Below the pieces are notes generated by a model. The model was not told the origin of the DNA. It worked only from the letters and a program-made list of their open reading frames with translations, and did not search any database. The position numbers were made by a program, and so were the translations under genes. Shown piece by piece: positions 6,576 through 7,320 of a DNA stretch of 7,332 nucleotides; positions within the stretch are counted from its first letter, which is position 1; each line of letters begins with the position of its first letter. Origin of the DNA: a virus (lineage: Duplodnaviria; Heunggongvirae; Uroviricota; Caudoviricetes); IMG/VR virus record IMGVR_UViG_2706794686_000014; one strand, written 5' to 3'.

Positions 6576-6728
6576 ATGATTTACACTAATCAGCTTCGTT
6601 ACAGTGGCAAAGATGGCATCTATTTCCACTTAAGAGACAATGTAGATGCCTTCTTAACCTTATCAGCAACTGAAAACATGGAATTTGATAGCCCTATGCA
6701 GGTGACTACACAGAACATGCAATTATGA
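6576..6728 (+). CDS. 5' segment (51 codons) of a tail-module gene; probably the N-terminal part of one gene continued in the +1 frame
   Basis: SD AAAGGAGA at 6563-6570, 5 nt before ATG 6576; hand-translated as [50 protein letters not shown]; stop TGA 6726-6728. Confidence 0.45.
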
Positions 6729-7320
6729 AGGAAGCTTATTATTAACTCGTCAGGGTCAATTAGTAGAAAACTTCATTGACACTCTGGAAAACTGGCGTGA
6801 CCAGAAGCAGATTATTTCTGTTATCTGTAAAGATGGAATTAAAATTGACGATTCCATTATTACCAACTTTAAAGCCTCTAAAGATGTTACTATCTCTAAC
6901 GGTCTTCGTATCCAGCTAACTTTTCAGGAAATTAACTTTAAAGCAATCGTAGGTCAAACTGATATTTCAGCAGCCACTGGCAAAACGGCTACCACAAATG
7001 ACGGTGGTGTGACCAGTAAGAAGAATGCAGGTAACGTGACCACTGAACGCAATAACGCGCCTATGCTATCGTGCAAAGAGTTAATGAATATTAGCGATGT
7101 ATCCGGTTACGCTCCAGCTATCAGAAATGATATTCTCGATGCTCAGATTAAATGTAATAAGGCTTGGAAGCTGGACTATTCAGACTTAACAGAAGCTGAA
7201 AAAACCAACGTCACCAATGCTAATAGTAACGCTGGTCGAGTAGCTTCAAAGCTTAAAAAGTACTCAGTGTGCAAAATGGCATCTGAATCGATCGCAGTTT
7301 GGCATTCGAATCGATCATGA
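6706..7320 (+). CDS. Continuation of the tail-module gene in frame +1 (frameshifted gene or pseudogene); the track shows only 7009-7320 from a GTG
   Basis: Frame 1 is open for about 205 codons from 6706 to TGA 7318-7320, with no ATG, GTG or TTG before GTG 7009. It overlaps the 3' end of the 6576-6728 ORF by 23 nt. Position after the tape measure gene suggests a distal-tail or baseplate-type protein. Confidence 0.45.

Follow-up and report, generated by a model that had tools for sequence, protein, structure and literature searches.

A split tail gene in a window of 7,332 nucleotides (the whole stretch of DNA analysed, IMG/VR record IMGVR_UViG_2706794686_000014) is, with a probability that we place at about 93%, a dead copy of a phage-type tube-initiator gene, located in a genomic island of Shigella sonnei, that was broken by a 74-nucleotide deletion and by the insertion of an IS element and has become fixed as a pseudogene. 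The deletion and the insertions were observed directly in many assemblies, and the intact homologues that were examined in phages and in Escherichia coli are single open reading frames. The features on which the analysis is based are collected in Table 1.

Table 1. Features of the window and of related island loci (positions without a locus name are those of the window)
Feature	Position	Strand	Remarks
Tape measure gene, intact	4239..6419	+	726 aa; PF20155 TMP_3, 77 bits; TIGR02675
Spacer between tape measure and tube-initiator genes	6420..6575	+	156 nt; carries AAGGAG 6564-6569
5' remnant of tube-initiator gene	6576..6723	+	Codons 1-49 and base 1 of codon 50
Deletion junction	6723..6724	+	74 nt (CAGGGCAAAC...GTAGTTGGC), residues S50-G74, missing between these bases
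3' remnant of tube-initiator gene	6724..7269	+	Codons Y75-V256, at +1 with respect to the start codon
Target-site duplication CTCAGTG	7263..7269	+	Same 7 nt follow the IS right end in L007
IS21-family left end	7270..7332	+	Multicopy; holds the TGA 7318-7320 that closes the open frame
Intact island copy	L003:5880-16920		OkiPb01716
Intact island copy	L004:5398-16562
Intact island copy	L006:1191-12658		TUM1881
Large serine recombinase interruption	L007:13357-16336		S. sonnei; IS3-family element
Large serine recombinase interruption	L003:15562-19671		OkiPb01716; ISEc12
Large serine recombinase interruption	L005:4802-9089		O177:H21; ISSso4-like element
Large serine recombinase interruption	L006:9802-12658		TUM1881; IS3-family element

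One tube-initiator gene in two reading frames

The first of the two frames (ORF1) opens on the forward strand at the ATG at 6576, which is preceded at a distance of 6 nucleotides by an AAGGAG Shine-Dalgarno sequence (6564-6569), and closes at the TGA at 6726-6728 after 50 amino acids. The second, in the +1 frame relative to ORF1, is free of stops from position 6706 to the TGA at 7318-7320 (204 sense codons) and shares 23 nucleotides with ORF1 (6706-6728), so that the initial annotation was right in describing a well-initiated frame with a 23-nucleotide overlap onto a long open one. Its further description of the latter as some 205 codons without a start in the first 100 held for the length and for the start, the earliest canonical in-frame candidate being the GTG at 7009 (codon 102), but not for the end, where the last 17 codons, stop included (7270-7320; 16 residues), belong to an insertion sequence and not to the gene. 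At the base composition of 6420-7332 (38% G+C), a run of 204 codons without a stop has a probability of approximately 5e-7, and the longest stop-free runs in the other five frames of the same interval reach only 50-63 codons; because of this disparity, and as had been argued earlier from the length of the stretch, 6706-7269 is evidently coding sequence, or was until recently.

Both frames were found to correspond to consecutive parts of a single protein family. ORF1 matches positions 1-51 of the 265-position profile phrog_3721 (E = 5e-26) and the second frame matches positions 76-258 (E = 2e-74), with approximately 25 profile positions absent between the two matches, and the two halves when joined match the same profile at E = 1e-99. 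These matches, and the position of the gene 3' of a tape measure gene, bear out the suggestion that one tail-module gene is split over two frames. The same order, with the tape measure gene followed by the gene in question (start at 6576 in the window), is seen in phages HK3 and garuso. When positions 6600-7035 were compared by megablast, they were found at 92-93% identity in Felix-O1-like phages (Felixounavirus), where the match lies within a single 265-residue gene directly 3' of the tape measure gene and takes up 510 nucleotides for a query of 436; over 6600-6723 the identity with phage HK3 is 97.6%.

Among PDB entries, the intact protein has a match (E = 4e-114) in 9ndy, the 'tube initiator protein (gp018)'. 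In a cryo-electron microscopy study of the Felixounavirus Bas63, this tube initiator is described as a hexameric adaptor between the baseplate hub, which is three-fold, and the six-fold tail tube, and as combining a tube-protein-like fold with a C-terminal extension of about 100 residues that spans the baseplate (PMC12609058). Bas63 gp18 (that is, gp018 of 9ndy) and its orthologues in HK3 (WYC17793.1) and garuso (garuso_119) all occupy the same place directly after the tape measure gene. Relative to these phage proteins, the intact alleles found in E. coli islands display approximately 97% amino acid identity over residues 8-177, which form the Dit_like tube-like domain, whereas their C-terminal extension of about 85 residues is strongly diverged and the alleles themselves lie in an island of the bacterial chromosome without the rest of the tail module. 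The window copy, by contrast, is without residues 50-74, has a shifted frame and is interrupted by an IS element. Against the Pfam profile Dit_like (PF21821; cut-off 24.2 bits), its joined halves score 34 bits and cover only positions 65-118 of 127, whereas intact homologues score 73 bits over positions 2-119. The window copy therefore does not contain a complete tube-like domain in one frame, and by its sequence it is a pseudogene of the Dit_like/phrog_3721 family rather than a functional member.

A deletion, two insertions and their distribution among assemblies

An alignment at the DNA level of the window with phages HK3 and garuso and with the E. coli chromosomal copies of OkiPb01716 and MSB1_9I contained one clean gap of 74 nucleotides, present in the window only and located between 6723 and 6724; the intact sequence across that junction reads ...ATGCAAT, then the missing CAGGGCAAAC...GTAGTTGGC, then TATGAAGG... 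Because 74 equals 3n+2, the frame changes at this point, and the out-of-frame continuation of ORF1 past 6723 consists of a single Leu codon followed by the TGA at 6726-6728. The single-base indel that the initial annotation had entertained gives way to this larger gap, which was seen against all of the intact homologues examined. Of the six proteins translated from phages and islands, five agree at all of the missing residues, S50-G74, and the sixth, the MSB1_9I allele, differs at 3 of the 25.

The query is covered to at least 80% in 62 complete E. coli genomes; in those listed, a query of 707-710 nucleotides spans 781-784 nucleotides in two pieces (that is, with approximately 74 extra nucleotides), and among the E. 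coli matches listed the locus stands under a single 'phage baseplate protein' annotation. Five E. coli copies that were either translated or seen annotated are single open reading frames of 261-262 residues, and every intact homologue examined, whether from phage or from E. coli, has one open reading frame of 261-265 codons and 74 nucleotides more than the window. Both halves of the window gene align within that one frame with the 74-nucleotide gap between them, and among the homologues examined none has the halves as separate genes with starts of their own. The 74 nucleotides are evidently ancestral, and the state of the window derived, because it is the intact alleles that give the 73-bit match over positions 2-119 of Dit_like. 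The converse possibility, that the 74 nucleotides are an intron-like or mobile insert in the relatives, was considered and rejected, as they encode part of the Dit_like core and are present in every intact relative examined. A search of the deletion end points for microhomology returned only short repeats at chance level, none of them in register, and a search for a hairpin at the same points was likewise negative. The 3' remnant shares 94.5% identity with the intact allele of E. coli OkiPb01716 (locus L003) and has so far acquired no in-frame stop, a state that fits a recent event and is also compatible with some constraint.

Past position 7269 the window departs from the intact genes, which go on AATCCGAACAAG... 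(NPNKRY*), and enters an IS21-family element that begins 21 nucleotides before the native stop of the tube-initiator gene. The sequence of 7270-7332 is multicopy, with as many as 34 occurrences in one E. coli genome and with many copies on plasmids, and in strain O177:H21 (L005) it lies just 5' of an annotated IS21 istA gene, the accompanying istB being of the ISSso4 family. In L007, probably an S. sonnei locus, which is 100% identical to the window outside two masked runs of N, the element is 2637 bp in length and runs from TGCAAAATGG to ATACGCA, with TG...CA ends, repeated GAATCGATC and TTTGGCAT motifs, and gene calls for istA (511 aa; rve, Mu-transpos_C_2) and istB (251 aa; IstB_IS21); beyond its right end and a further CTCAGTG, the native end of the gene, AACCCTAACAAAAAATACTAA (NPNKKY*), resumes. 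In its termini, repeated motifs, istA and istB genes and target duplication, the element is a member of the IS21 family.

The window is evidently DNA of S. sonnei, because of its identity to L007 and because the accession of another retrieved locus (L017, CP104423.1) adjoins that of a plasmid of S. sonnei strain 1527837 (CP104424.1); the other assemblies retrieved look like the same lineage, to judge from sequence identity and IS content. In a collection of assemblies, 2281 blocks record the exact 50-residue product of ORF1 and 5607 an exact copy of the tape measure protein. The deletion junction was present in all 19 loci that were retrieved (17 assemblies, ranging from draft contigs to closed 4.8-Mb chromosomes), including 9 of 9 that were reached by way of the tape measure protein and hence independently of any ORF1 call, and the IS21 junction was present in 18 of the 19, the remaining contig ending before that point. 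Neither the deletion junction nor the IS junction had any match in a collection of species-representative genomes, and the deletion junction had none in metagenome contigs. The deletion is real and, to all appearance, fixed in the S. sonnei lineage.

An IS1 element was also observed inside the 3' remnant, at a point equivalent to approximately 7165-7174, in L009-L017 and L020-L022 (in L014, at approximately 10600-11366); confined as it is to a sub-lineage of S. sonnei, it could be a phylogenetic marker.

Rival readings and the course of gene decay

That the split arose in sequencing or assembly, with the gene intact in the organism, we regard as a possibility close to nil. Frame breaks are a common assembly error in A+T-rich DNA, and the junction is missing from the representative-genome and metagenome collections; however, a clean gap of 74 nucleotides does not resemble an error of the homopolymer type, the recurrence of one junction in all loci from 17 separate assemblies and of the truncated product in 2281 blocks speaks against the sequencing error that had been offered earlier, and absence from the representatives would be expected if an E. 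coli genome stands for Shigella there. A programmed +1 frameshift at CAA-TTA-TGA (6720-6728), which would fuse both frames into one functional protein, is very improbable, even though the shift needed is indeed +1, a zero-frame stop lies at the overlap as it does in prfB, and ORF1 is well initiated. Two kinds of programmed shift provide the comparison: prfB uses a +1 shift with a Shine-Dalgarno-like element about 3 nucleotides from the shift site, and tail assembly chaperones of the lambda G/GT type use a -1 shift. The window is like them in that two frames overlap within a tail gene region, with a stop where they do, but it has none of their sequence signals. The G/GT shift, moreover, sits 5' of the tape measure gene and is conserved in relatives, whereas the split in the window sits 3' of that gene and occurs in one lineage only. 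Within 6706-6728 (CTACACAGAACATGCAATTATGA), which lacks a homopolymer run, neither a slippery nor a stimulatory signal was found; the sole Shine-Dalgarno-like element, AGGTG at 6700-6704, is 18 nucleotides upstream rather than about 3; and by the rules of codon-anticodon pairing the tRNA-Leu that reads UUA cannot re-pair on the +1 codon UAU. A fused product would still lack residues 50-74, which are core residues of the tube-like domain (identical except for the three substitutions of MSB1_9I), and the frame downstream has itself been hit by IS21 in the 18 loci noted above and by IS1 in many. Since the intact homologues examined are single frames with 74 additional nucleotides, the split arrangement is not a conserved one but arose as a lesion, and the recoding offered as one reading in the initial annotation is not upheld.

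A further reading accepts the lesion as real and supposes that a fragment is still used, for example as a decoy against tail assembly of Felix-O1-like phages, the candidates being the 50-residue N-terminal peptide or a C-terminal piece begun at GTG 7009, ATG 7063 or ATG 7084. This we consider very unlikely. The ribosome-binding site of ORF1 is still strong, residues 9-49 of its product do not differ from those of the phage protein, and the 3' remnant has stayed free of in-frame stops; on the other hand, the three internal starts lack a convincing Shine-Dalgarno sequence, and the 3' remnant is cut by IS21 and, in a large sub-lineage, by IS1, without a sign of selection to keep it. The IS hits argue against residual use of a fragment, and the disruption of the island integrase as well is consistent with decay in general. 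Of the three readings offered in the initial annotation, that of a real pseudogene is the only one left standing, given the 74-nucleotide deletion and the IS hits: the gene is disrupted relative to intact orthologues in independent assemblies, and it carries further lesions.

Decay of the pseudogene in steps would account for the arrangement as follows, and it is from sequence comparison that we infer both that function was lost and in which order the lesions arose. The ancestral gene, situated directly after the tape measure gene, would have encoded a hexameric, Dit-like tube initiator seated on the baseplate hub. An internal deletion of 74 bp took residues 50-74 out of the tube-like domain and changed the frame, such that translation from the normal start at 6576 would end at 6726-6728 and yield a 50-residue fragment. 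Subsequently an IS21-family element would have landed 21 nucleotides before the native stop and, in a sub-lineage, an IS1 within the 3' remnant. The 3' part, having no start codon of its own, would not be translated as such, and no full-length product would be made; the long +1 open frame would represent the part of the gene that is still undecayed, and would reflect the youth of the lesion rather than a function.

Genome decay, with pseudogenes arising by deletion and by IS insertion and expansion, is characteristic of S. sonnei, and the kind of event described here is therefore already known. The window gene is like other decay pseudogenes of Shigella in its several independent lesions (the deletion, IS21 and IS1), in the IS-disrupted integrase gene beside it (a large serine recombinase gene split by an IS3-family element) and in a state that appears fixed in a clonal lineage, and it is unusual only in that the ends of its deletion show no microhomology. 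The finding removes one candidate recoding site, which becomes an ordinary decayed gene, and it provides the caution that a deletion of many codons in a tail-module gene can mimic a programmed frameshift.

The island family

Positions 1-7269 of the window make up most of a chromosomal island of approximately 10 kb that is bounded by serine-recombinase genes. The order of its genes begins with a small serine recombinase/invertase, a Dam-like methyltransferase and a 317-residue O-/DnaD-like, replication-initiator-like protein, continues with five small genes (71-101 aa) and genes of 236 and 68 residues, all unassigned, and ends with the tape measure gene, the tube-initiator gene and a convergent large serine recombinase gene. 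The same compact set was found at at least three chromosomal sites (between ymdF and wrbA, between yciI and tonB, and inside a DUF72 gene), and because of this we take the island to be mobile as a unit, rather than what a prophage happened to leave behind. Searches of its proteins against Pfam, PHROGs, PADLOC and NCBIfam returned matches only for the resolvase, the Dam-like methylase, the replication-initiator-like protein and the tape measure protein; the seven unassigned proteins had no significant match in any of these four collections, and PADLOC found no known defence system in the island apart from an orphan methyltransferase.

The genes of 236 and 68 residues (window 3174-4140; L007:6624-7565) occupy the place of the tail assembly chaperones, 5' of the tape measure gene. 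The 236-residue protein had no match among phage records in a tblastn search, and it is called a 'transposase' by RefSeq in some genomes, a label for which nothing was found in support. The large serine recombinase gene is interrupted in four separate genomes by a different IS in each (Table 1); the right end of the island looks, from these sequences, like a recurrent IS target, and many island copies are probably immobilised. The two runs of N in the window, at 559-812 (254 nucleotides) and 3226-3446 (221 nucleotides), fall in the replication-initiator-like gene and in the gene of 236 residues, respectively, and each corresponds to 244 nucleotides of ordinary coding sequence in L007; they preserve neither true length nor frame, so that lists of open reading frames across both runs are unreliable. 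The idea that they hide a repeat was rejected, the two underlying stretches in L007 being unrelated coding sequence.

The similarity of the island to Felixounavirus DNA is distributed very unevenly. The best phage relatives of the tape measure protein are the Felixounavirus tape measure proteins, at approximately 30-33% amino acid identity; the island protein is full length despite this deep divergence and retains phage-like termini. At the DNA level the 5' end of the gene (4230-4373, 144 nucleotides) is 78-80% identical to HK3 and garuso, its last 25 nucleotides (6391-6415) are 100% identical to HK3, and the tube-like domain of the tube initiator is 91-98% identical to HK3; over the rest of the window little similarity is detectable, with one weak patch of 71-74% at approximately 5150-5340. 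The island-specific C-terminal extension of the tube initiator, searched alone by tblastn, had no match in phages. So sharp a mosaic suggests either recent exchange with phages or selection on the contacts of hub and tube. The extension (about 85 residues) is observed to keep two Cys residues and a terminal SVNPNK.Y motif. The spacer between the two tail genes recurs almost unchanged in L003 and L004, both islands of E. coli, and is absent in the phages, whose genes abut; a simple consensus scan of it returned no sigma-70-like promoter and no intrinsic terminator. A 7-bp inverted repeat (AAGGCTT...AAGCCTT) is present within it at approximately 6519-6556.

The broken gene may, tentatively, be read as a decayed part of an undescribed E. 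coli/Shigella island family that is a candidate phage satellite or a candidate decoy against tail assembly of Felix-O1-like phages, a proposal that we hold to be possible but doubtful. As a satellite, the island could plug its own proteins into the baseplate hub of a helper; as a defence element, it could poison Felix-O1-like tail assembly. What points to a satellite is the gene content, in which an integrase and an O-/DnaD-like replication initiator accompany two tail genes of Felix-O1 type. By its genes, the intact island resembles PLE, PICI and capsid-forming PICI in being small and integrase-bounded, in having a replication-initiator-like gene, in carrying a handful of structural genes with relatives in one phage group, and in lying at three or more chromosomal sites. 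The pairing of a tape measure protein with a tube initiator alone is, to our knowledge, without a counterpart in the known satellite families, and the papers searched contained no description of this island, nor of any island or satellite in which a tape measure protein is tied to Felix-O1-like phages.

The intact island is present in approximately 1% of complete E. coli genomes, and Felix-O1-like phages are virulent and are used in the biocontrol of Salmonella and E. coli. If the satellite or the defence reading is true, the island would be a new kind of satellite or defence element, and S. sonnei would have lost that function; if the island interferes with or exploits Felix-O1-like phages, it would affect the prediction of their host range. 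The intact island family may therefore matter more than the broken gene itself, and merits a separate look.
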